Part shown: positions 12,128-55,783 of the stretch, in pieces
Position numbering within the stretch: the stretch's first letter is position 1
How the letters are laid out: the number at the start of each line of letters is the position of its first letter
Assembly: GCA_963733015.1 (NCBI GenBank)
Contig: CAVTBO010000003.1
Span: 44,635-108,634 of the forward strand
Length of the DNA: 64,000 bases
Direction of reading: 5' to 3'
Source: an uncultured Actinomycetes bacterium
GTDB taxonomy: Bacteria; Actinomycetota; Thermoleophilia; Gaiellales; Gaiellaceae
Position numbers and translations under genes: made by a program
The notes under the pieces: generated by a model
Database searches by the model: none
Told to the model about the DNA's origin: nothing
The model's input: the letters and a program-made list of their open reading frames with translations, nothing else

Positions 12128-13093
12128 ATGCACGCCGTCACGAGCAACGGGCTGCGGAAGAGGTACGGGAAGGTCGAGGCGCTTCGCGGGATCGACCTCC
12201 AGGTGGAGGCTGGAAGCGTCTTCGGGCTCCTCGGTCCCAACGGGGCCGGGAAGACGACGGCTGTGCGGATCCTGACCACGTTGCTCTCGCCGGACGAGGG
12301 CTCTGCCTCCGTCGCAGGGTTCGACGTGCTCCAGCAGCCGAGCAAGGTCCGCGAGAACATCGGCCTTGCCGGCCAGTACGCCGCCGTCGACGAGAACCTG
12401 ACCGGGTGGGAGAACCTCGAGATGGTGGGCCGCCTCTACCACCTCGGCCGCCGTGCCGCCAAAGCGCGAGCCGACGAGCTCCTCGCCGACTTCGATCTCA
12501 CGGAGGCCGGCGGCAGGCTCGTCCGCACCTATTCCGGAGGGATGCGTCGCCGCCTCGACCTCCTCGCGGCGCTCGTCGCACGTCCGCCGGTGCTCTTCCT
12601 GGACGAGCCGACGACCGGGCTCGACATCCGCAGCCGCATCGGGCTCTGGGATGCGATGGAGGCGCTCGTCGCCGGCGGGACGACCGTGCTGCTGACCACG
12701 CAGTACCTCGACGAGGCCGACCGCCTCGCCGACCGGATGGCAGTCATCGACCGCGGCCTGGTCATCGCAGAGGGAACGCCGGACGATCTCAAGGCACAGG
12801 TCGGCGGCGATCGCCTCGAGGTCCATCTCTGTGACGGACGGCGCGGCGAGGAGGCGATCCCCGTGCTCGCCTCCATCGCAAGCGATCGCCCGTCGGCGGA
12901 TAACGGCCTGGTCAGCGTGCCGCTGCGCGACCGGAGCGGCGCGATCGCGGACGCCGTTCGTCGCCTCGACGAAGCGGGGATCGCGATCGACGACATCGCG
13001 ATGCGGCGACCGACACTCGACGACGTCTTCCTCAGCCTGACGGGGCGCGCCACCGAGCACGACGAGGAAGCCCAGGAGGCGGAGCGGCGATGA
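12128..13093 (+). CDS. ABC transporter ATP-binding protein (DrrA-like)
   Basis: Walker A GPNGAGKTT, YSGGMRRRLDL, Walker B LFLDEPTTGLD; ATG 12128 chosen (12110 would overlap previous gene). Confidence 0.85.
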   Translation: MHAVTSNGLRKRYGKVEALRGIDLQVEAGSVFGLLGPNGAGKTTAVRILTTLLSPDEGSASVAGFDVLQQPSKVRENIGLAGQYAAVDENLTGWENLEMVGRLYHLGRRAAKARADELLADFDLTEAGGRLVRTYSGGMRRRLDLLAALVARPPVLFLDEPTTGLDIRSRIGLWDAMEALVAGGTTVLLTTQYLDEADRLADRMAVIDRGLVIAEGTPDDLKAQVGGDRLEVHLCDGRRGEEAIPVLASIASDRPSADNGLVSVPLRDRSGAIADAVRRLDEAGIAIDDIAMRRPTLDDVFLSLTGRATEHDEEAQEAERR

Positions 13094-25308: not shown

Positions 25309-25545
25309 ATGCCCAGCAAGCGAGCCAACGTCAAGAACGAGAAGCAGTACGAGAAGCTCAAGGAGAAGGGGATGTCGAAGGAGCGCGCGGCGAAGATCGC
25401 CAACTCGCCGGGCGCGTCGAGCCGCGGCGGGAAGAAGTCCGGCTCGGGATCGAGCTCCCGCTCGAACGCCAGCCAGGGCGGCACGACGGCCCAGAAGAAG
25501 GCCGCAGGCCGCAAGGGCGGCAAGGCGACCGCGCGCAAGAGCTAA
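25309..25545 (+). CDS. small Lys/Ser/Gly-rich basic protein (DUF7218-like N-terminus, tentative)
   Basis: Strong RBS GAGGAGG 5 nt before ATG; MPSKRANVKNEKQYEKLKEKGMSKERAAKIANSPGASSRGGKK... Confidence 0.6.
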   Translation: MPSKRANVKNEKQYEKLKEKGMSKERAAKIANSPGASSRGGKKSGSGSSSRSNASQGGTTAQKKAAGRKGGKATARKS

Positions 25546-25550
25546 CCGGC

Positions 25551-25571
25551 CAAGTAACAACTTGTTACTTG
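25551..25571. repeat. AT-rich palindrome P1: CAAGTAACAA-C-TTGTTACTTG
   Basis: Perfect 10+1+10 palindrome, 7/21 G+C, starts 5 nt after the TAA at 25543-25545. Confidence 0.9.
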
Positions 25572-25573
25572 CT

Positions 25574-25604
25574 CCCCGACGCCCTCAACCTGGGACGTTC
25601 GGGG
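25574..25604. terminator. GC-rich stem-loop between convergent genes (possible bidirectional terminator, no U-tract)
   Basis: CCCCGA(25574-25579)...TCGGGG(25599-25604) with additional inner pairing. Confidence 0.4.
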
Positions 25605-25607
25605 GGT

Positions 25608-25626
25608 TAGTGACAACTTGTTACTA
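25608..25626. repeat. AT-rich palindrome P2 (degenerate): TAGTGACAA-C-TTGTTACTA
   Basis: 8 of 9 arm pairs; overlaps the TAG stop (25624-25626) of the minus-strand FAD oxidoreductase gene. Confidence 0.8.
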
Positions 25627-27126
25627 GCGTCTGAGCAGCGGTCGGAGGAGCCGCTCGACGTCCCGGCGGTACGGGTCGCCGTCGAAGGCACGCACCGGGT
25701 GCGGGTCGAGCTCGTGTTCCTCGAGCTCCCCGCCCCGGCGTACGTAGACCGCCGGATAAATCGTCCCGTTCGCGCTCATCTCCACCGCGACGGCCGCCGC
25801 GTCCGGCCCGCCGCCGCCTCCGTCCACGAAGTGCTCGAGCGGCAGGATCCCCTCGTCCCTGATCCCGTCGTCGGAGAAGGAGAGCGCATGCGCGAGGTAG
25901 CCCTTCTGGATCCAGACCTCGGGCCCACACGCCAGCTCGTGGAGCAGCAGCGGGACGACCTCGTCGGCCCCGAGCGTCGGCTTCGGCTGCTCGAACCCGA
26001 GCCGCTCGCCGATGTGCCGCGCCAGCACGCGGGCGTTGTAGCGGAACCCGTTCACCGAGCTCGAATTGGCGGCGACGCCGTCCTTTGAGAGCCCGCGCGA
26101 GGCGATCGTGATGTTCCCGGCGAAGAAGATTCCGGGCACGGACACGCTCTCCCAGAACCGCGAGAGCGCGGGGACGCGATCGTTCATCACCGTGACGACC
26201 CCGAGCTCGCGGAGGTCGCACAGCGGCACCCTGAAGCCCGTCGCCAGGATCACCTCGTCGCCCGAGAAGACGAGGCGCCCGTCCCACGAGGTCGCGTCGG
26301 CCGTCACGCGGAACCCGTCGGCCGCGCGCTCGATCCCCACGATCGACCCGTCGACCACGTAGGTGCCGGGGCTGCCGCGCACGTATTCCTCGTACGGCTG
26401 GAGGTAGCGGGCGCGCAGCGGCGAGTGCGCGAGCACCGAGATGTCCACCGGGCGCGGCGAGACGAGCGTCAGCTCGCGCGCCCACGGCAGCAGCCCGTAC
26501 GCGAGCTCGAACGCAGAGTTGCGCTTTCCGACGATCACGACGCGCTTGTCGCGGTACGAGTCGGCCGACCCGGCGTCGGCGTAGTGGGTCGCATGCTCGG
26601 AGCCCTTGAGCGGGGGTGACCAGGGCTCTGTCATCCCGATCGCGAAGACGACGACCCGGCAGCGGTACTCCCCGTCGGTCGTCTCGAGGACGAACCCCTC
26701 GTCCTCGCGCCGCGTCCCGGTCCAGCGGCAGCCGTATCGGGCCTGGATGCCAGCGCGTTCGACGAAGTCGACGATCCCCGCCTCCATCTCGCCGCGCGCC
26801 GGCACGTCGAAGCTTCGATCCATCAAACCGGCGACCAGTCCGCGCGCTTCCGGCTCGTCCGCGACGAGGCTGTTGTTGTCGAAGCACTCGTACTCGCGCG
26901 TGTGCCGCTCCCACGGCGCGTCCGGCTTCGTCCAGCTGATCAGCCGCTCGAAGACCGGAAACCTTCGGAACATTCCGCCGGGGGCGTCGTCGGCGGAGAG
27001 CACGGCGTGATTGGACACACCCGCTCGAGACAGCGAGTAGCTCGTCTGGAGGCCGGCGGGACCGGTGCCGACGACAACGACGTCGTAGTCCCCCGGCGGG
27101 AACGGGGTCAGGAGCCGCTCATCCAT
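25624..27126 (-). CDS. FAD/NAD(P)-dependent oxidoreductase (flavin monooxygenase / pyridine-nucleotide disulfide oxidoreductase-like) with about 130-aa unassigned C-terminal extension
   Basis: Dinucleotide motifs DVVVVGTGPAG and VVIVGKRNSAFE; ATGF... late FAD motif. Confidence 0.75.
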   Translation of the reverse strand: MDERLLTPFPPGDYDVVVVGTGPAGLQTSYSLSRAGVSNHAVLSADDAPGGMFRRFPVFERLISWTKPDAPWERHTREYECFDNNSLVADEPEARGLVAGLMDRSFDVPARGEMEAGIVDFVERAGIQARYGCRWTGTRREDEGFVLETTDGEYRCRVVVFAIGMTEPWSPPLKGSEHATHYADAGSADSYRDKRVVIVGKRNSAFELAYGLLPWARELTLVSPRPVDISVLAHSPLRARYLQPYEEYVRGSPGTYVVDGSIVGIERAADGFRVTADATSWDGRLVFSGDEVILATGFRVPLCDLRELGVVTVMNDRVPALSRFWESVSVPGIFFAGNITIASRGLSKDGVAANSSSVNGFRYNARVLARHIGERLGFEQPKPTLGADEVVPLLLHELACGPEVWIQKGYLAHALSFSDDGIRDEGILPLEHFVDGGGGGPDAAAVAVEMSANGTIYPAVYVRRGGELEEHELDPHPVRAFDGDPYRRDVERLLRPLLRR

Positions 27127-28505: not shown

Positions 28506-29351
28506 ATGCTCGACCGGCAGACGATCGAAGAGCGACAGCGCGACCGGGCGGCTGCGCTCGAGGACCTCAACCGCGCCAAGCGCGAGCTCGCCCAGGCCGC
28601 CACGCGGCTCGCCGAGCGGGAGCAGAAGCTCGAGGAGCGCGAGAAACGCCTCGAAAAGCGCATGCAGCGGATCGCCCGCAAGCTGGAGGCGAGGCGCAAG
28701 CGACAGCACCGGATTTCCGCCCTGCGCGCGAAGGTGTCCGACACCGAGCTGCTGAAGGGACGCCACAAGGAGTCCGAGCTCGACCGCGGCGAGAAGCGCA
28801 TCAGCCGTCGCGAAAGCGAGCTCGAGGGGCGGACCGCCGAGCTCGCGGCGAGGGCCGCCGAGCTGGACAGTCGCGCCGAAGCGCTGATGGCGCGCGAGAT
28901 GGAGCTCGACGCGCGCGACGGCGAGTCGGGCCGCCTCAACGAGGAAGCCACGCGGATCCGCACAGGCATCGAGCAGCGCGAGAGCGACGTCGCGACGCGT
29001 GAGCAGGAGATCGCCGGCCGCGAGCAGCGCGCCGCCGAGCTCGAACGATCGGTCGGCGAGCGGGAGGACCTGGCGGCATCGAAGGATGCGGAGCTGACCG
29101 CGAAGCTCGAGGATCTCGCCGGGCGGGAGAAGCGGCTCCGAAAGGACGAGCAGCGCCGGGCGGCGGCGGCCGATCGACTCGAGCGCCATTCCGCCGATCT
29201 CGCCGAGCGGGAGCAGGCGCTCGCGCGGCTGGGCCAGAGCCTCCTCTCGCGTCGCAACGGAGAGCCCGGCCCGGTCGAGGAGGCTTCCACCTCCACGTTC
29301 GTCGAGGGCCTCGACGCCCTCAGCGGCGCCTCACGCCCGAAAACGGACTGA
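28506..29351 (+). CDS. Glu/Arg/Ala-rich coiled-coil protein, hypothetical
   Basis: ATG 28506; high GC3 in this frame; the long antisense ORF (28100-29458) is Ser/Arg-rich shadow. Confidence 0.6.
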   Translation: MLDRQTIEERQRDRAAALEDLNRAKRELAQAATRLAEREQKLEEREKRLEKRMQRIARKLEARRKRQHRISALRAKVSDTELLKGRHKESELDRGEKRISRRESELEGRTAELAARAAELDSRAEALMAREMELDARDGESGRLNEEATRIRTGIEQRESDVATREQEIAGREQRAAELERSVGEREDLAASKDAELTAKLEDLAGREKRLRKDEQRRAAAADRLERHSADLAEREQALARLGQSLLSRRNGEPGPVEEASTSTFVEGLDALSGASRPKTD

Positions 29352-34861: not shown

Positions 34862-35434
34862 GTGACCAAGAAGACTCGACTCACGGTTCTCTCGCTCGCC
34901 GCGCTCCTCGCGCTCGCGATCGTGAGCGCCGCCGTCGCCCACCGCGTCGTCGTCATCAAGGGGACGAAGAACGGTGAGACCCTGACGGGCACGATCGGGA
35001 ACGACAGGATTCACGCCCGCGGCGGTGACGACACCGTCAACGCCGGGGAGGGCAACGACCGTGTGTTCGGCCAGCACGGGAACGACACCCTCAACGGTGA
35101 GGGTGGAAACGACCGCATGCGCGGTGGTCCCGGCACGGACACGCTCAACGGCGGCGAGGGCAACGACGTCCTCCGCGGCCGCTGGGGCAACGACGTCGTG
35201 AACGGCGACAACGGTGACGACCGCATCTGGGTCGGCCGTGGTGCAGACGTCGAGAACGGCGGCGCCGGCAACGACCGGATGCACGCACTTGCCCGCGACC
35301 GCATGGTCGACACGATCGACTGCGGTGCAGGCGACAGGGACGTCGTCTGGCTCAACTCCAGGGAGTCCGACGTCCACGTCAACTGCGAGATCGTCAAGAC
35401 CGTGACGACGTCGCACCCCGACGACGGGGAATAA
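34862..35434 (+). CDS. secreted calcium-binding protein with hemolysin-type GGxGxD-like repeats
   Basis: GTG 34862 nine nt after AGGAGG (34847-34852); signal peptide; repeated G-GNDxL/V-G units. Confidence 0.7.
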   Translation: MTKKTRLTVLSLAALLALAIVSAAVAHRVVVIKGTKNGETLTGTIGNDRIHARGGDDTVNAGEGNDRVFGQHGNDTLNGEGGNDRMRGGPGTDTLNGGEGNDVLRGRWGNDVVNGDNGDDRIWVGRGADVENGGAGNDRMHALARDRMVDTIDCGAGDRDVVWLNSRESDVHVNCEIVKTVTTSHPDDGE

Positions 35435-36477: not shown

Positions 36478-37215
36478 GTGGCACTCCTCACAGTCGAGAA
36501 CGTGACACGGCGTTTCGGCGGGATCGTTGCACTCGACGACGTGTCGCTCGATTTGGAGGAGGGCACGATCGGCGGGCTCATCGGCCCCAACGGCGCCGGC
36601 AAGACGACGCTCTTCAACGTCGTGACGCGCCTGTACAAAGCCGATTCGGGCCGCGTTGTGCTCGAGGGACGGGACCTGCTTCGCACTCGCCCGTACCGGA
36701 TCATCCGCTCGGGTGTTTCCCGGACGTTCCAGAACGTTGTGCTCTTCCCGACCATGACCGTGGCCGAGAACGTCCTCGTTGGCGCACACACGCGCATGCA
36801 CCCCTTCGGCGAGCGCCAGGGTCGAAAGATGGCGCGCGAGACGCTCGAGTATCTGAACCTGGGACAGCACGCCGAGCGGCCTGCCGCCGGCCTGCCGTTC
36901 GGGACGCTCAAGCGAATCGAGCTGGCCAGAGCGCTCGTCTCGCGTCCGCGGCTGCTCCTGCTCGACGAGCCCGCCGGCGGGCTCAACCACGAGGAGGTGG
37001 AAGAGCTCGGTGCGCTGATCCGGCGCCTGAGGAAGGACTACGACCTCACCCTTCTGATCGTCGAGCATCACATGGCGCTCGTCATGAGCATCTGTGACCG
37101 GGTGCACGTCCTGAACTTCGGCAAGAAGATCGCCGAGGGGACGCCGGCCGAGGTCCAGCAGGATCCGGACGTGATCGAGGCCTATCTCGGAGGCGAGGAT
37201 GCCGATGCTGCTTGA
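36478..37215 (+). CDS. livG: branched-chain amino acid ABC transporter ATP-binding protein
   Basis: GTG start; GPNGAGKTT, LPFGTLKRIELARAL, LLLDEPAGGL. Confidence 0.85.
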   Translation: MALLTVENVTRRFGGIVALDDVSLDLEEGTIGGLIGPNGAGKTTLFNVVTRLYKADSGRVVLEGRDLLRTRPYRIIRSGVSRTFQNVVLFPTMTVAENVLVGAHTRMHPFGERQGRKMARETLEYLNLGQHAERPAAGLPFGTLKRIELARALVSRPRLLLLDEPAGGLNHEEVEELGALIRRLRKDYDLTLLIVEHHMALVMSICDRVHVLNFGKKIAEGTPAEVQQDPDVIEAYLGGEDADAA

Positions 37216-37900
37216 GCTGCGTGACGTGCACGCCCGTTACGGGCCGGTCCGCGCCCTGCACGGGGTCTCGCTCACGGTCGATCAGGGCGAAGTCGTCGCG
37301 CTCCTCGGCGCCAACGGCGCCGGCAAGACGACCACGCTCCGCAGCGTCTCGGGCATGGTTCGCAAGACCGGCGAGATCGTCTTCGACGGCCGCCGGATCA
37401 TGCGGCGCAGCCCGGAGTCGATCGCGCGGCTCGGCATTGCGCACGTCCCGGAGGGGCGCGGGCTCTTCCTCGAGCTGTCGGTCTGGGAAAACCTGCGCAT
37501 GGGCGCGCGGGGCCGGCTCGCTGAGGGCGAGCCCGAGCGTGTAGTCGGGTACTTCCCGTGGATCGATCGGCGTCGGAACCAGCAGGCGGCGACGCTGAGC
37601 GGCGGCGAGCAGCAGATGCTCGCCCTCGCACGGGCGCTCGTCTCGAAGCCGCGGTTGCTGATGCTCGACGAGCCTTCGCTCGGCCTCGCGCCGACGGTCG
37701 TCCGCGAGCTCTTCGGCATCGTGCGGCGACTGAACGAGGAGGACGGTCTGACGGTGCTTGTGGTCGAGCAGAACGCGACGATCGCCCTGAGCCTCGCGTC
37801 GCGGGCATACGTCCTCGAGGTCGGGAAGGTCGCGGTACACGGGACGAGTGAAGAGCTCGAGCGCCACGAAGCGGTCCGAAAGAGCTACCTGGGTTATTAG
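37199..37900 (+). CDS. livF: branched-chain amino acid ABC transporter ATP-binding protein
   Basis: GANGAGKTT, LSGGEQQMLALARAL, LMLDEPSLGLAP. Confidence 0.85.
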   Translation: MPMLLELRDVHARYGPVRALHGVSLTVDQGEVVALLGANGAGKTTTLRSVSGMVRKTGEIVFDGRRIMRRSPESIARLGIAHVPEGRGLFLELSVWENLRMGARGRLAEGEPERVVGYFPWIDRRRNQQAATLSGGEQQMLALARALVSKPRLLMLDEPSLGLAPTVVRELFGIVRRLNEEDGLTVLVVEQNATIALSLASRAYVLEVGKVAVHGTSEELERHEAVRKSYLGY

Positions 37901-43126: not shown

Positions 43127-44264
43127 CGCAGTCATCGTCTCGGCAGCGCGAACCCCGATCGGGCGGGCGCGGAAGGGGTCGCTCGTGGACGCCCGTCCCG
43201 ACGACCTGGCAGCGTTCGCCATCGACGCCGCGCTGAAGCAGGTCCCGGAGCTCGATCGCGGGGACATCGTCGACGTCATGCTCGGATGCGGGTTCCCGGA
43301 GCAGAAGCAGGGCATGAACCTCGCCCGGCGTGCGGCGCTCCTTGCTGACCTGCCGGCGAGCGTCCCCGGGACGACCGTCAACCGGTTCTGCGCCTCCTCC
43401 CTGCAGACGATCCGAATGGCGTTCCACGCGATCAGGGCCGGCGAGGGCGACGCGTTCGTCGCCGGCGGCGTCGAGTCGATCACCCAGGTCGACGGCTATC
43501 CGAAGGACGCCGAGGAGCTTCATCCGAAGCTGTTCGGTGACGACGCCCCGATCGCGAACGTGTACATCCCGATGGGGATGACGGCCGAGAACGTCGCCGA
43601 GCGCTGGGACGTCTCCCGGGAGGACATGGATCTTTATGCGCAGCGGTCCCAGGAGCGCGCGGTCGCCGCGCAGGACAGCGGCTTCTTCGGCCGCGAGCTC
43701 ACACCCTGGAACGGCGTGTCCGCGGACGACGGGCCGCGCCGCGGATCGACGCTCGAGAAGCTCGCCGAGCTCGAGCCGGCCTTCCGGCCGGACGGCAAGG
43801 TGACGGCCGGAAATTCGTGTCCGTTGAACGACGGAGCGGCAGCGGTCGTCGTCACCAGCGAGGAGAAGGCGGGGGAGCTCGGCGTCCAGCCGCGGGCCAG
43901 GATCATCGCGTCGGCTGTCTCGGGCGTCGAGCCCGAGATCATGGGCGTCGGCCCGATCGGCGCCGTGCGCGCCGTCCTGGAGCAGGCGGGAATGACGATC
44001 GACGACGTCGACGTGGTGGAGCTGAACGAGGCGTTCGCCGCGCAGGTGCTCCCGGTCAGCCGCGAGCTCGGCATCGATCCGTTCGGCGAGAAGCTGAACC
44101 CGCACGGCGGCGCAATCGCCCTCGGGCACCCCTACGGCATGACCGGCGCGCGGATCATGTGCACGCTGCTCAACGATCTCGAGACCCTCGACGGGACGAT
44201 CGGGCTCGAGACGATGTGCGTCGGCGGCGGCCAGGGGATGGCGATGATCGTCGAGCGCCTGTGA
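43119..44264 (+). CDS. acetyl-CoA C-acyltransferase (thiolase)
   Basis: TTG start (MSDAVIVSAARTPIG); VNRFCASSLQ, NPHGGAIALGHP, CVGGGQG. Confidence 0.9.
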   Translation: MSDAVIVSAARTPIGRARKGSLVDARPDDLAAFAIDAALKQVPELDRGDIVDVMLGCGFPEQKQGMNLARRAALLADLPASVPGTTVNRFCASSLQTIRMAFHAIRAGEGDAFVAGGVESITQVDGYPKDAEELHPKLFGDDAPIANVYIPMGMTAENVAERWDVSREDMDLYAQRSQERAVAAQDSGFFGRELTPWNGVSADDGPRRGSTLEKLAELEPAFRPDGKVTAGNSCPLNDGAAAVVVTSEEKAGELGVQPRARIIASAVSGVEPEIMGVGPIGAVRAVLEQAGMTIDDVDVVELNEAFAAQVLPVSRELGIDPFGEKLNPHGGAIALGHPYGMTGARIMCTLLNDLETLDGTIGLETMCVGGGQGMAMIVERL

Positions 44265-53667: not shown

Positions 53668-54676
53668 AGACGAACAAGCGCGTCACGCTCGCGGCGCGGC
53701 CTCAGGGCTTTCCGGAGGACGCGGACTTCGTCCTGGACGAGGTCGAGGTGGGAGAGCCGGGCCCGGGCGAGGTGCTCGTGCGGACGCTCTGGGTCTCCGT
53801 CGATCCGTACCAGCGCGGCCGCATGAGCGAGGCACGCTCGTACGCGAAGAAGCTCGAGCTCGGCGATGTGATCACGTCGCAGTCTCTGGCGAGGTGGTCG
53901 TGAGCCAGGATGGGCGCTTTGAGCCCGGCGACCTGGTCGTCGGACAGCTCGGCTGGCAGGAGTATGCGGTCGCACGGGGTGGCTCGGTACGGATGGTGCC
54001 GGTGTTCCTCGACCCGCCGACGCTGGCGCTGCATGCCGTCGGCGCCACAGGCCTGACCGCCTACTTCGGGCTCCTGGACGTAGGGAAGCCGAAGCCCGGG
54101 GACACCGTCGTGGTGTCGGGTGCCGCAGGCGCCGTCGGGCAGGTCGTGGGGCAGATCGCGAAGCTCGCCGGCTGCCGCACGGTCGGGATCGCCGGCGGCC
54201 CGGACAAGTGCACGGACTGCCGCCTGTACGGCTACGACGAGGCGATCGACTACAAGGACGAGAACTTCCGCGAGGCGTTCAAGTCCGCCTGCCCGGACGG
54301 CGTCGACATCTACTTCGACAACGTGGGCGGCGGCGTGTCCGAGGGCGTCCACCGCCGTCTCAACATCGGGGCGAGAATCGTCATCTGCGGGCAGATCTCG
54401 CAGTACAACCTGGAGCGGCCGGAACCGACGTTCCATCCCGCGGCGCTGATCGTCTACCGCGCGCGGATGGAGGGGTTCCTGATCAACGACTACGCGCATC
54501 GCTTCGACGAAGCGGCAATGCGCCTGGCGCGGTGGGTCGCCGAGGGGAAGATCACGTGGCGCGAGGACGTGACCGAGGGGCTCGAAAACGCGCCATCGGC
54601 GTTCATGGGCATGCTGCGAGGCGAGAACCGCGGCAAGGCCCTGGTCAAGGTCGCCGACCGCGAGCAGGCCAAGTAA
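53652..54676 (+). pseudogene. NADP-dependent oxidoreductase (MDR, CurA/YncB/alkenal reductase-like), frame broken near 53886-53892
   Basis: MAVLVKTNKRVTLAARPQGFPEDADF...VDPYQRGRM...LGDVITSQS in one frame, GEVVVSQDGRFEPGDLV...GAAGAVGQVVGQIAKLAG... in the -1 frame. Confidence 0.75.
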
Positions 54677-54692
54677 CAAGTTGTTACTTGGC
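54668..54692. repeat. AT-rich palindrome P3: GCCAAGTAACAA-G-TTGTTACTTGGC
   Basis: Perfect 12+1+12 palindrome; contains the TAA stops of both convergent genes (54674-54676 plus strand, 54684-54686 minus strand). Confidence 0.9.
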
Positions 54693-54971
54693 TCGACGGC
54701 GGCGTCCGAGCTCGGGGACCCCGACCCCCGAGATGTGGTCGAGCACGGCTTCCGGCGGCCTGACGCGAAAGGCGACATCGGCAAGGACGCTCACGGTGCT
54801 GGGACCCCGGCGGATGCGCCGGGATTCGTGGACGAGTAGGCGAACGCGCTCGTAGCTCGGCCTGGCTACGCCGATTCGGTCGGCCTCACTGCCGACACGC
54901 CGACAGGTCTCGGCGATCGGAACGGAAGGACCGTCCGCCTTGACGAGCGCCTCGAGGAGACGGGGCGACAT
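54684..54971 (-). CDS. orphan 95-aa hypothetical protein bracketed by palindromes P3 and P4
   Basis: ATG 54971 (GTG about 54995 possible); GC3 about 79% and GC2 about 55% counted by hand, compatible with coding; no family recognised. Confidence 0.4.
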   Translation of the reverse strand: MSPRLLEALVKADGPSVPIAETCRRVGSEADRIGVARPSYERVRLLVHESRRIRRGPSTVSVLADVAFRVRPPEAVLDHISGVGVPELGRRRRAK

Positions 54972-55048
54972 TCGCGCGGCGAATCGTGGCACCACCCGAC
55001 TGTGCCTCGAAGAGGCGCGTGGAGAGTGCCAACTCAGCGCCGGATCTT

Positions 55049-55071
55049 CCAAGTAACAAGTTGTTACTTGG
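55049..55071. repeat. AT-rich palindrome P4: CCAAGTAACAA-G-TTGTTACTTGG
   Basis: Identical to P3 over 23 nt; 1 nt from the TAG of the SDR gene and 77 nt upstream of the orphan ORF ATG. Confidence 0.9.
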
Positions 55072-55072
55072 G

Positions 55073-55783
55073 CTAGAGCGGCGGGGCGACACCTTCCGCG
55101 CCCGGGACCCTGGGGCCCGGGATGCCACGGAAGCGATACGGCTCTGGCGGCCGGCCCGGCTGGACGATCCACGCCTCGCCGGTGCCCTCGCTGCGCGCCG
55201 CGAGGAGCACGGCGTCGGCGACCTCCTCCGCCCGGAGAAGCGGAAAGCCCGCCTCTTCGAGCGACGCCCGCAATTCGCCCGCGACCATCGGTGTATCCGC
55301 GAAGCCGGGGCACACCGCGTTGATCCGAATGCCGCGCTCTGTGAGCTGCGGCGCCACGGACCGAACGAAGCCGACGATCGCGTGCTTCGTCAGCGCGTAG
55401 ATCGGATCGCCTTCGACCCCCGTCAGTCCGGCGAGCGAGGCCGTGACGACGATCGCGTCGCCGTCCTCCAGCTCCCTGGCGAGCCGCCGGACCCCGTAGA
55501 CGACGCCGTCGACGTTGACGGCGACCACGCGCTGGTACTCCTCTGCGGTCAGCTCCGCAATGTCCGCCGTGCTCGTCGTGATGCCCGCATTCAGGCACGC
55601 CAGCTCCACGCGGTCGACGGACTGCCAGGCCGTCGGGTCGGAGACATCGAAGCCCGAGACGAGATCCAGCTCCAGCACCTCGACGCCTTCCCGCTCGAGC
55701 CGCTCGACGATCGCGCGACCGATTCCGCCCGCGGCGCCCGTGACGAGAGCAGTCCTAGGGAACAAGGACGACCTTGCCGACAT
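55073..55783 (-). CDS. SDR-family oxidoreductase
   Basis: TGAAGGIG, NAG, YALTKHA motifs; start ATG 55783 (TTG 55765 alternative). Confidence 0.8.
   Translation of the reverse strand: MSARSSLFPRTALVTGAAGGIGRAIVERLEREGVEVLELDLVSGFDVSDPTAWQSVDRVELACLNAGITTSTADIAELTAEEYQRVVAVNVDGVVYGVRRLARELEDGDAIVVTASLAGLTGVEGDPIYALTKHAIVGFVRSVAPQLTERGIRINAVCPGFADTPMVAGELRASLEEAGFPLLRAEEVADAVLLAARSEGTGEAWIVQPGRPPEPYRFRGIPGPRVPGAEGVAPPL

Follow-up and report, generated by a model that had tools for sequence, protein, structure and literature searches.

An AT-rich palindrome dispersed in Gaiellaceae genomes, with a small helical protein as its candidate reader

Analysis of a 64-kb window from an uncultured Gaiellaceae genome (the window being the whole stretch of DNA analysed, 64,000 nucleotides) revealed four copies of CAAGTAACAA-S-TTGTTACTTG against a chance expectation of 0. 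Together with its copies in related genomes, this palindrome is probably, in our judgement, the cognate DNA site of a putative reader, a small helical protein encoded on the minus strand at 54684-54995. A reader that is sequence specific, trans-acting and two-fold symmetric is indicated because each genome carries one exact sequence, symmetry is kept when that sequence switches between lineages and the central base pair is fixed; the small protein is the obvious candidate because the palindrome-gene-palindrome module is self-contained. The first-pass annotation had offered three readings, namely (a) a REP/MITE-like element at operon ends, (b) a site for a dimeric protein and (c) a lineage-specific terminator. 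The second is the best supported of the three, with a candidate gene between copies 3 and 4 and homologues of that gene accompanied by lineage-specific palindromes. More tentatively, the system may represent a previously unrecognised palindrome-reader class of high-GC soil actinobacteria, combining a ~95-aa protein of a new fold family, a few dozen sites and concerted switching of these sites even inside essential genes.

Palindromes in the window

Scanning the window with the pattern AGTAACAASTTGTTACT and at most 3 mismatches gave 4 matches (0.00 expected, 100 shuffles), which form two loci separated by 29 kb. The features of these loci are:

25551-25571: P1, CAAGTAACAACTTGTTACTTG, that is CAAGTAACAA-C-TTGTTACTTG; a perfect 10-1-10 palindrome of 21 bp with 7/21 G+C
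about 25572-25607: hairpin in the P1-P2 spacer; GC-rich, -22 kcal/mol, z -3.3
25608-25626 (21-bp extent 25607-25627): P2, TAGTGACAACTTGTTACTA, with arms TTAGTGACAA-C-TTGTTACTAG; degenerate partner of P1
54669-54691: copy 3, CCAAGTAACAAGTTGTTACTTGG; a perfect 23-bp palindrome just downstream of the small ORF
54684-54995, minus strand: small ORF of ~95-103 aa, with its start at GTG 54995/54992 or ATG 54971; product Arg-rich and all-helical
55027-55032, minus strand: -35-like TTGGCA, in a conserved block (GGCGCTGAGTTGGCAC) downstream of copy 4 in an alignment of 13 loci
55049-55071: copy 4, CCAAGTAACAAGTTGTTACTTGG; a perfect 23-bp palindrome between the stop of the SDR gene (55073-55075) and the start of the small ORF

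P1 begins 5 nt past the TAA (25543-25545) of a 78-aa Lys-rich ORF (25309-25545), which has a Pfam match to DUF7218 (E 3e-12). P2, which lies 56 nt from P1 start to start and has 1 mismatch within the 17-nt core, overlaps the stop (CTA at 25624-25626, a minus-strand TAG) of a 500-aa Pyr_redox_3 FAD oxidoreductase, and its CTAG/TAA gives this minus-strand gene an in-frame TAG-TAA double stop. In sequence and coordinates, including the perfect symmetry and base composition of P1, the first-pass annotation had described the pair correctly, and the GC stem-loop that it placed between the two palindromes was borne out by folding. This hairpin may be a real terminator of the converging genes.

At the second locus, copies 3 and 4 lie 380 nt apart and bracket the small ORF. 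The TAA of copy 3 (54674-54676) is the stop codon of a plus-strand gene for an NADP-dependent oxidoreductase (ADH_zinc_N), and the TAA stop of the small ORF (54684-54686, minus strand) also falls within copy 3. The recurrence of the core at 54.7/55.1 kb had been noticed earlier and holds in the form of two perfect 23-mers, although the small gene between them had been missed; likewise, placement between converging operons is right for the 25.5-kb pair but not for the 54.7/55.05-kb pair, which flanks the small gene. Throughout the 64-kb window the half-site GTAACAA was found nowhere outside the 4 palindromes, and an Rfam search of the whole window at the gathering threshold gave no match. Consensus promoter and terminator scans at both loci returned no U-tract, no terminator-like site and no promoter.

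Two other repeated features of the window were recorded. Tandem 27/54-nt repeats with the core GGCAACGAC occur at 35031-35209 and also at 29287-29330 and 43426-43469, and resemble the RTX-type (GGxGxD) calcium-binding nonapeptide repeats of a large secreted protein. Three paralogous ABC ATPase genes (12161-12622, 36511-36984 and 37235-37687) have their Walker A and signature regions in common; those at 36.5 and 37.2 kb are neighbours and LivG/LivF-like.

Distribution among genomes

A genome scan with AAGTAACAANTTGTTACTT, using one genome per species, returned at least 118 loci. Among the matches listed, 69 lie on contigs of 64-73% GC from MAGs assigned to Gaiellaceae, Thermoleophilia or 'uncultured Actinomycetes' (38 assemblies). 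Across these 38 Gaiellaceae/actinomycete assemblies the 21-mer is near-invariant among the matches listed, with copies identical to P1 included, and has S-CAAGTAACAA-S-TTGTTACTTG-S as its consensus. Of the 108 copies among the matches listed, 58 are centred on C, 44 on G, 3 on A and 3 on T (C/G, 94%), a C centre and a G centre being the same element in two orientations. The orientation of the centre relative to gene direction was unbiased in two site sets (20:15 and 36:44), which is what a symmetric site in double-stranded DNA should show.

Genomes contain several loci each, the maximum from one MAG among the matches listed being 7 loci (9 exact copies). Within the fetched sequence blocks further independent loci were rare (~1 in 510 kb for the first set and 4 in 569 kb for the set of AG-W-CT palindromes described below), and from this density we estimate on the order of 10-40 loci per genome, or ~1 locus per 100-500 kb, an extrapolated figure rather than a complete-genome count. 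On two other contigs (L007/L033 and L051/L100), the palindrome pair around the small ORF lies 6.6-7.6 kb from a second locus with paired copies.

The 49 remaining matches of the at least 118, which are low-GC and A/T-centred, were set aside as unrelated to the Gaiellaceae element; they comprise one orthologous Microcoleus locus, a Desulfobacula-specific repeat and scattered singles in other low-GC genomes. In Microcoleus/Oscillatoriales (L004, L005, L023, L030, L031 and ~20 more) an A/T-centred 19-mer, AAGTAACAAWTTGTTACTT, sits in one conserved flanking context and probably represents one orthologous locus with an operator or hairpin that is conserved but unrelated. Desulfobacula sp. PL25b_bin.1 (43-50% GC; L034, L040, L059, L065, L066, L083) carries at least 6 copies of a repeat with the common sequence ...TTCATTA-AAGTAACAANTTGTTACTT-AGAAG, a separate family that contains the same palindrome by chance. 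Viral contigs yielded no exact copies of the palindrome and no relatives of the small protein, and a literature search on the motif and on Gaiella palindromes found nothing relevant.

Position relative to genes and stop codons

Many sites bear a close relation to stop codons, as was seen when ORFs of coding-type GC3 leading straight into a site were examined. For the first set (108 sites), 33 ORFs end at the TAA of the palindrome (...C AAG TAA), 2 end at the CTAG variant and 17 read through; for the second set (163 sites), the corresponding numbers are 70, 10 and 16. About a third or more of the copies, therefore, donate the stop codon of a neighbouring gene, as P2 and the copy at the ADH_zinc_N gene do in the window. 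Read-through copies, 10-16% of the total, lie in frame inside coding sequences, 4 to 490 codons ahead of the stop. The frame used reads SNxLLL in 28/33 cases, as opposed to QVTxCYL, and the copies in purL, coaBC and accC read SN(N/K)LLL. The host proteins are PurL (one or two copies), CoaBC (in the inter-domain linker), AccC (at the C-terminus) and a 102-aa protein.

Other copies precede genes, including some that lie 19-25 nt ahead of an ABC-F gene (four species) and three tandem copies upstream of another gene (L024), and converging genes typically have one copy against each of the two stop codons. No functional theme was apparent among the neighbouring genes (SDR, ADH, acyl-CoA dehydrogenase-like, thioesterase, PurL, CoaBC, AccC/NusB and ABC-F); for this reason, and because most sites are 3' or intragenic rather than at promoters, a classical regulon is unlikely. 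As a description, the REP/MITE-like element of the first-pass annotation fits in part, the palindrome being multi-copy, lineage-wide, present or absent inside purL and frequently overlapping stop codons. It is not confined to operon ends, however, since copies also lie inside coding sequences and upstream of genes, nor is it a MITE or a member of the REP/RAYT family (see below).

Selection on the DNA sequence within purL and coaBC

Whatever its context, the 21-bp element keeps its nucleotide sequence from species to species. At the purL site common to 6 species, flanking third-codon positions are 68% identical in pairwise comparison whereas the 6 third positions within the core show 100% identity even though they fall in the rare codons TTA, CTT and AGT, which argues that the DNA sequence itself is selected; at this site the centre flips between C and G, resulting in an Asn to Lys change. 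A second purL site, present in two species and absent in four, corresponds to a net +18-nt in-frame insertion, from which it follows that copies can be inserted. No target-site duplication was seen at this purL insertion.

At the coaBC site, 119 of 120 close CoaBC homologues align at one linker position without an indel, of which 96 have a recognisable SN..L-type peptide and 23 a variant or decayed one. Depending on the lineage, the same codons contain GTAACAA-S-TTGTTAC, GTAACAG-T-CTGTTAC or GTAACAC-T-GTGTTAC. When an orthologous site changes type it thus does so symmetrically, both arms together, and this switching is the strongest single piece of evidence in the analysis.

The small gene and its palindromes

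The frame of the small ORF is conserved in 13 syntenic Gaiellaceae loci, all of which show the order SDR, palindrome, ORF, palindrome, NADP-dependent oxidoreductase. The family comprises 333 close homologues and, on clustering at 50% identity, 380 representatives, all ~95 aa and unannotated. Comparison of the small protein with Pfam, PDB sequences and, by Foldseek, PDB structures gave no significant match (best Foldseek E 2.4). By Pfam, no ParBc or HTH match was obtained for the ~95-aa protein, and Spo0J appeared in Foldseek only at E ~9; such weak matches as were seen are scattered among HTH and winged-helix proteins, with Pfam HTH at E of at least 0.01 in 1-2 of 44 members. Y1_Tnp was likewise not detected by Pfam in the window ORF (E up to 0.01) or in 44 family members (E up to 5), and the His-hydrophobic-His motif is absent from the invariant columns of the family. 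The AF2 model is all-helical, with a pLDDT of 75 overall and >90 at residues 11-60, and contains a confidently predicted three-helix core to which Foldseek and Pfam matches are non-significant.

In the alignment of the 13 loci, TTGACA directly adjoins the palindrome in other species at the position where the window has TTGGCA. We infer that this hexamer serves as the promoter -35 of the small gene, although the consensus promoter scan gave no match there, and copy 4 is a candidate autoregulatory operator of the gene. At one locus (L007:6199-6602, MAG MFD09206.bin.2.167) the small ORF loses the family frame after RPSYERV while both flanking palindromes are intact; this frameshift points to a pseudogene or, alternatively, to an error in the long-read assembly.

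Nine diverged homologues (33-50% identity) were placed on contigs by exact-protein look-ups. Their neighbours differ, yet each is flanked by two palindromes 350-520 nt apart, so that the palindrome-gene-palindrome arrangement is kept in every one of the 10 lineages examined while the genes around the module change (SDR/ADH, LplA, glycosyltransferase, DUF480, integrase and hydrolase). In one diverged lineage (L130:159-1514) the module, with two copies of CAAGTTGCAACTTGCAACTTG, lies immediately upstream of a tyrosine recombinase gene whose product contains Phage_int_SAM_1 plus Phage_integrase and is XerC/D-like. Over the 10 lineages the palindromes fall into nine 7-1-7 types, each lineage-specific:

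GTAACAA-S-TTGTTAC, the type of the window clade
GTAACAC-W-GTGTTAC
GTAACAG-W-CTGTTAC, in two lineages
GTGACAM-Y-TTGTCAC
GCAACAG-A-CTGTTGC
GCAACAA-C-TTGTTGC
GTTGCAA-C-TTGCAAC
GTKACAC-A-GTGTYAC
GTGGCWC-W-GAGCCAC

The third of these, the AG-W-CT type, is also dispersed, with at least 120 metagenome loci, all of those listed being of 65-76% GC. The small gene was found at 9 of the at least 120 AG-W-CT loci listed. These loci show the same overlap with stop codons, the same in-frame copies and the same paired copies, and their centre is 99% A/T among the matches listed. Inspection by eye found no residue of the small protein that tracks palindrome type.

Spacing of paired sites

Many sites occur in pairs, and 50 pairs less than 125 nt apart were collected. 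Their start-to-start spacings are 41-42, 53-56, 65-67, 75-80, 88-90, 100 and 110 nt, a distribution with a period of ~11-12 bp (Rayleigh R 0.65, a value attained in 0/5000 simulations), to be read in the knowledge that some of the 50 pairs are orthologous and thus non-independent. The best-fit period of ~11.7 bp is greater than 10.5 bp and depends mainly on the 55- and 67-nt classes. At orthologous loci the spacing differs by 12 nt (55 vs 67) or by 21 nt (56 vs 77). This quantised spacing suggests that dimers on neighbouring sites would be in contact on one face of the helix.

The usual pair consists of one perfect copy and one recurrent variant (CTAG...CTAG, GTGAC or ...ACAAG), the combination of a perfect with a CTAG/GTGAC-type copy being repeated at many loci; P2 is a copy of the variant kind. 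A few pairs are of mixed type, for example GTAACAC-T-GTGTTAC beside GTAACAA-G-TTGTTAC (L020:3053-3148, L029:5234-5331, L223:4552-4631), which could reflect relaxed recognition of inner positions or two paralogous readers per genome.

Spacers between paired copies are unrelated in sequence from locus to locus, and folding of the spacers of the 50 pairs gave a mean z of ~0 relative to shuffles, with z below -2 in 2/50. Since 48/50 spacers are unstructured, the GC hairpin of the window is local to P1-P2, and a 'palindrome, hairpin, palindrome' module was rejected on the same count. The palindromes themselves, when transcribed, would form hairpins of -10 to -17 kcal/mol (z -4 to -6).

Proposed model and alternatives

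We propose that each palindrome would be bound by the small protein as a dimer and that dimers on paired sites would touch, giving rise to the ~11-bp spacing steps and to the pairing of a strong with a weaker site. The upstream copy, beside the -35-like hexamer, would autoregulate the small gene, and the downstream copy may close a loop of ~380 bp. On this model the remaining sites, a few dozen per genome and mostly located against stop codons and between converging genes, would be marks of bound protein. Their position suggests a role as transcriptional roadblock, insulator or chromosome-structuring point, although which role they might have is a guess. New sites would arise rarely, by templated insertion of an 18-21-nt unit, and would survive where they are harmless, such as in intergenic DNA, at a C-terminus by means of their own TAA or in linkers where they are read as SNxLLL.

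A rather unlikely alternative, which partly overlaps the binding-site model and with which that model is non-exclusive, is that the palindrome or the pair is a non-autonomous mobile element of the REP/REPIN kind. In this case the flanked single-copy gene would copy or homogenise the palindrome, and conservation would stem from copying or gene conversion instead of host function. The architecture resembles that of RAYT genes, which have their REPs on both sides, are inherited vertically and persist for long (PMC3116915, PMC3337134, bioRxiv 10.1101/2021.07.10.451892), and the +18-nt difference at the second purL site has the form of an in-frame insertion that is present or absent. The existence of paired copies, the capacity of P1, spacer and P2 to fold as one long hairpin (-47 kcal/mol) and the many ORFs ended by a copy's own TAA, with others interrupted in frame, as if insertion were followed by filtering, point the same way. 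Conversion from a master copy would also produce type switching over a whole genome more readily than a series of independent symmetric mutations. Against this, the ~95-aa protein lacks a Y1_Tnp/HUH match or motif, the density of loci is low, many sites are orthologous across species rather than polymorphic, the purL insertion shows no target-site duplication and the pair is not copied as a unit, as its unrelated spacers indicate. That a different trans-acting protein, such as a larger regulator or a nucleoid protein, reads the palindrome, with the small ORF merely the most conserved gene to be bracketed, is improbable. The small protein is tied to the palindrome by association, neither a DNA-binding family match nor a specificity-tracking residue was found, and lineage differences in the palindrome could come from common ancestry. 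However, the architecture of the module is constant in 10 lineages while its neighbours change, which is what a self-contained unit of protein plus site predicts.

Two further alternatives place the function in transcripts. A 9-12-bp RNA hairpin at mRNA 3' ends, which stabilises transcripts or is bound by an RNA-binding protein and is the same for both converging genes, would account for the stability of the transcribed hairpins, for the placement directly at stop codons and for symmetric arm changes that preserve pairing between lineages. We nevertheless regard it as very improbable: structure alone leaves one exact sequence per genome and a fixed S or W centre pair unexplained, the recurrent partner variants (CAAG...CAAG) break the outer pairing without compensation, some sites precede genes and others flank the small gene, and the spacing of pairs points to DNA geometry. 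A lineage-specific intrinsic terminator module made up of palindrome, GC hairpin and palindrome, which was option (c) of the first-pass annotation and is suggested by the hairpin at the converging gene ends of the window, is scarcely credible. Neither locus of the window has U-tracts or a terminator-like site, the hairpin is missing from 48/50 pair spacers, and copies are found ahead of genes as well as within essential genes, at a depth of 76-490 codons; an obligatory terminator could not sit where the purL and coaBC copies do.

If the palindrome is read by the small protein, the latter would define a new DNA-binding family, unannotated and comprising at least 380 clusters when grouped at 50% identity, and the lineages would provide a ready set of naturally matched proteins and sites from which a new recognition code might be worked out. 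If the broader palindrome-reader class also exists, it would imply either that bound protein acts as a roadblock marking off transcription units at stop codons or that a 21-bp palindrome is copied or converted across a genome by a new, non-HUH mechanism; the former would be a possible protein-based means of delimiting transcription units in GC-rich genomes without canonical terminators. Selection at the nucleotide level outweighs codon choice inside purL, coaBC and accC, and a repeat that donates stop codons to about a third of neighbouring genes switches its sequence genome-wide in concert.

Comparison with known systems

MITEs have a conserved internal sequence bounded by terminal inverted repeats and are accompanied by target-site duplication; a MITE was rejected because the spacers of paired copies are unrelated and no duplication accompanies the purL insertion. 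Intrinsic (Rho-independent) terminators are GC-rich stem-loops followed by a U-tract at the transcript end, whereas the palindrome is AT-rich and followed by GC-rich sequence. Mycobacterial TRIT terminators are sequence-conserved inverted repeats at gene ends and resemble the palindrome in this respect, but the latter has no U-tract and no terminator signal. DNA uptake sequences (DUS/USS) are short oriented motifs that are hugely over-represented as single copies. An uptake sequence was rejected, given that the half-site is restricted to the 4 palindromes of the window and that copy number is far lower than for such sequences. Rickettsia palindromic elements (RPE), reportedly described by Ogata et al. 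in 2000, are said to be inserted in frame into protein-coding genes and tolerated there as an extra peptide. The in-frame copies found here are similar in being palindromic repeats inside protein-coding genes, but RPEs are 100-150 bp long and are not known to have a flanked protein gene or to show letter-for-letter purifying conservation.

Dispersed palindromes read by one protein are also known from chromosomal protein-site systems. The parS/ParB, matS/MatP and NBS/Noc systems have a few to a few dozen palindromes of 13-16 bp, often in coding sequences and conserved across species, and each set of sites is read by one dedicated dimeric protein, the gene for which is sometimes beside a site. 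The Gaiellaceae palindrome is likewise dispersed, often intragenic and conserved across species, and the gene for its candidate reader adjoins two of the sites, but its sequence and the protein family are unrelated to those of the known systems, and we know of no parS, matS or NBS site that has been inserted or that supplies a stop codon. Membership of the parS/ParB family in particular was rejected: parS is a 16-bp TGTTNCACGTGAAACA-type site read by ParB, an HTH plus CTPase protein, and here the site sequence differs and Pfam gave no ParBc or HTH match. The paired sites recall lac O1/O2/O3 and gal OE/OI, which are paired palindromic operators with helical-phase dependence and a strong and a weaker site, and which, like the second locus of the window, include an operator downstream of the promoter and ~400 bp away. 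For lac, the efficiency of looping with auxiliary operators reportedly varies with helical phase, the in vivo period being ~11 bp (a result attributed to Mueller, Oehler and Mueller-Hill, 1996). In contrast to the present sites, which are dispersed and mostly not at promoters, lac and gal operators serve one operon and bind a large LacI/GalR tetramer. More generally, a two-fold symmetric site with arms that change together (nine types in 10 lineages, and coaBC) is like that of a generic dimeric HTH operator system.

The closest known architecture is that of REP/REPIN sequences and their RAYT genes in E. coli and Pseudomonas (PMC3116915, PMC3337134, bioRxiv 10.1101/2021.07.10.451892). As in those systems, the palindrome is short, dispersed, often at gene 3' ends or between converging genes, frequently paired, lineage-specific in sequence and long persistent, and a single-copy, vertically inherited gene has its own palindrome on both sides, here in 13 syntenic loci and 9 diverged homologues. 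Nevertheless, RAYT is a Y1 HUH tyrosine transposase (Pfam Y1_Tnp, PF01797), whereas the protein found here is helical, ~95 aa long and without a Y1/HUH domain. The repeats differ as well: REPs are imperfect, have a 5' GTAG/GTGG head and number hundreds of extragenic copies, whereas the present palindrome is perfect, AT-rich, headed CWWG-GTAAC with a one-base centre and present in tens of copies (an estimate from fetched blocks), many of them in frame inside genes or supplying stop codons, and its paired copies have unrelated spacers of quantised length. How and why short palindromes persist so long in bacterial lineages is a question raised by REPIN-RAYT systems, and a second, unrelated protein partner would make it testable. 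The present palindrome is not a REP/RAYT member, as it has neither a Y1/HUH domain nor a GTAG head and its estimated copy number is low.
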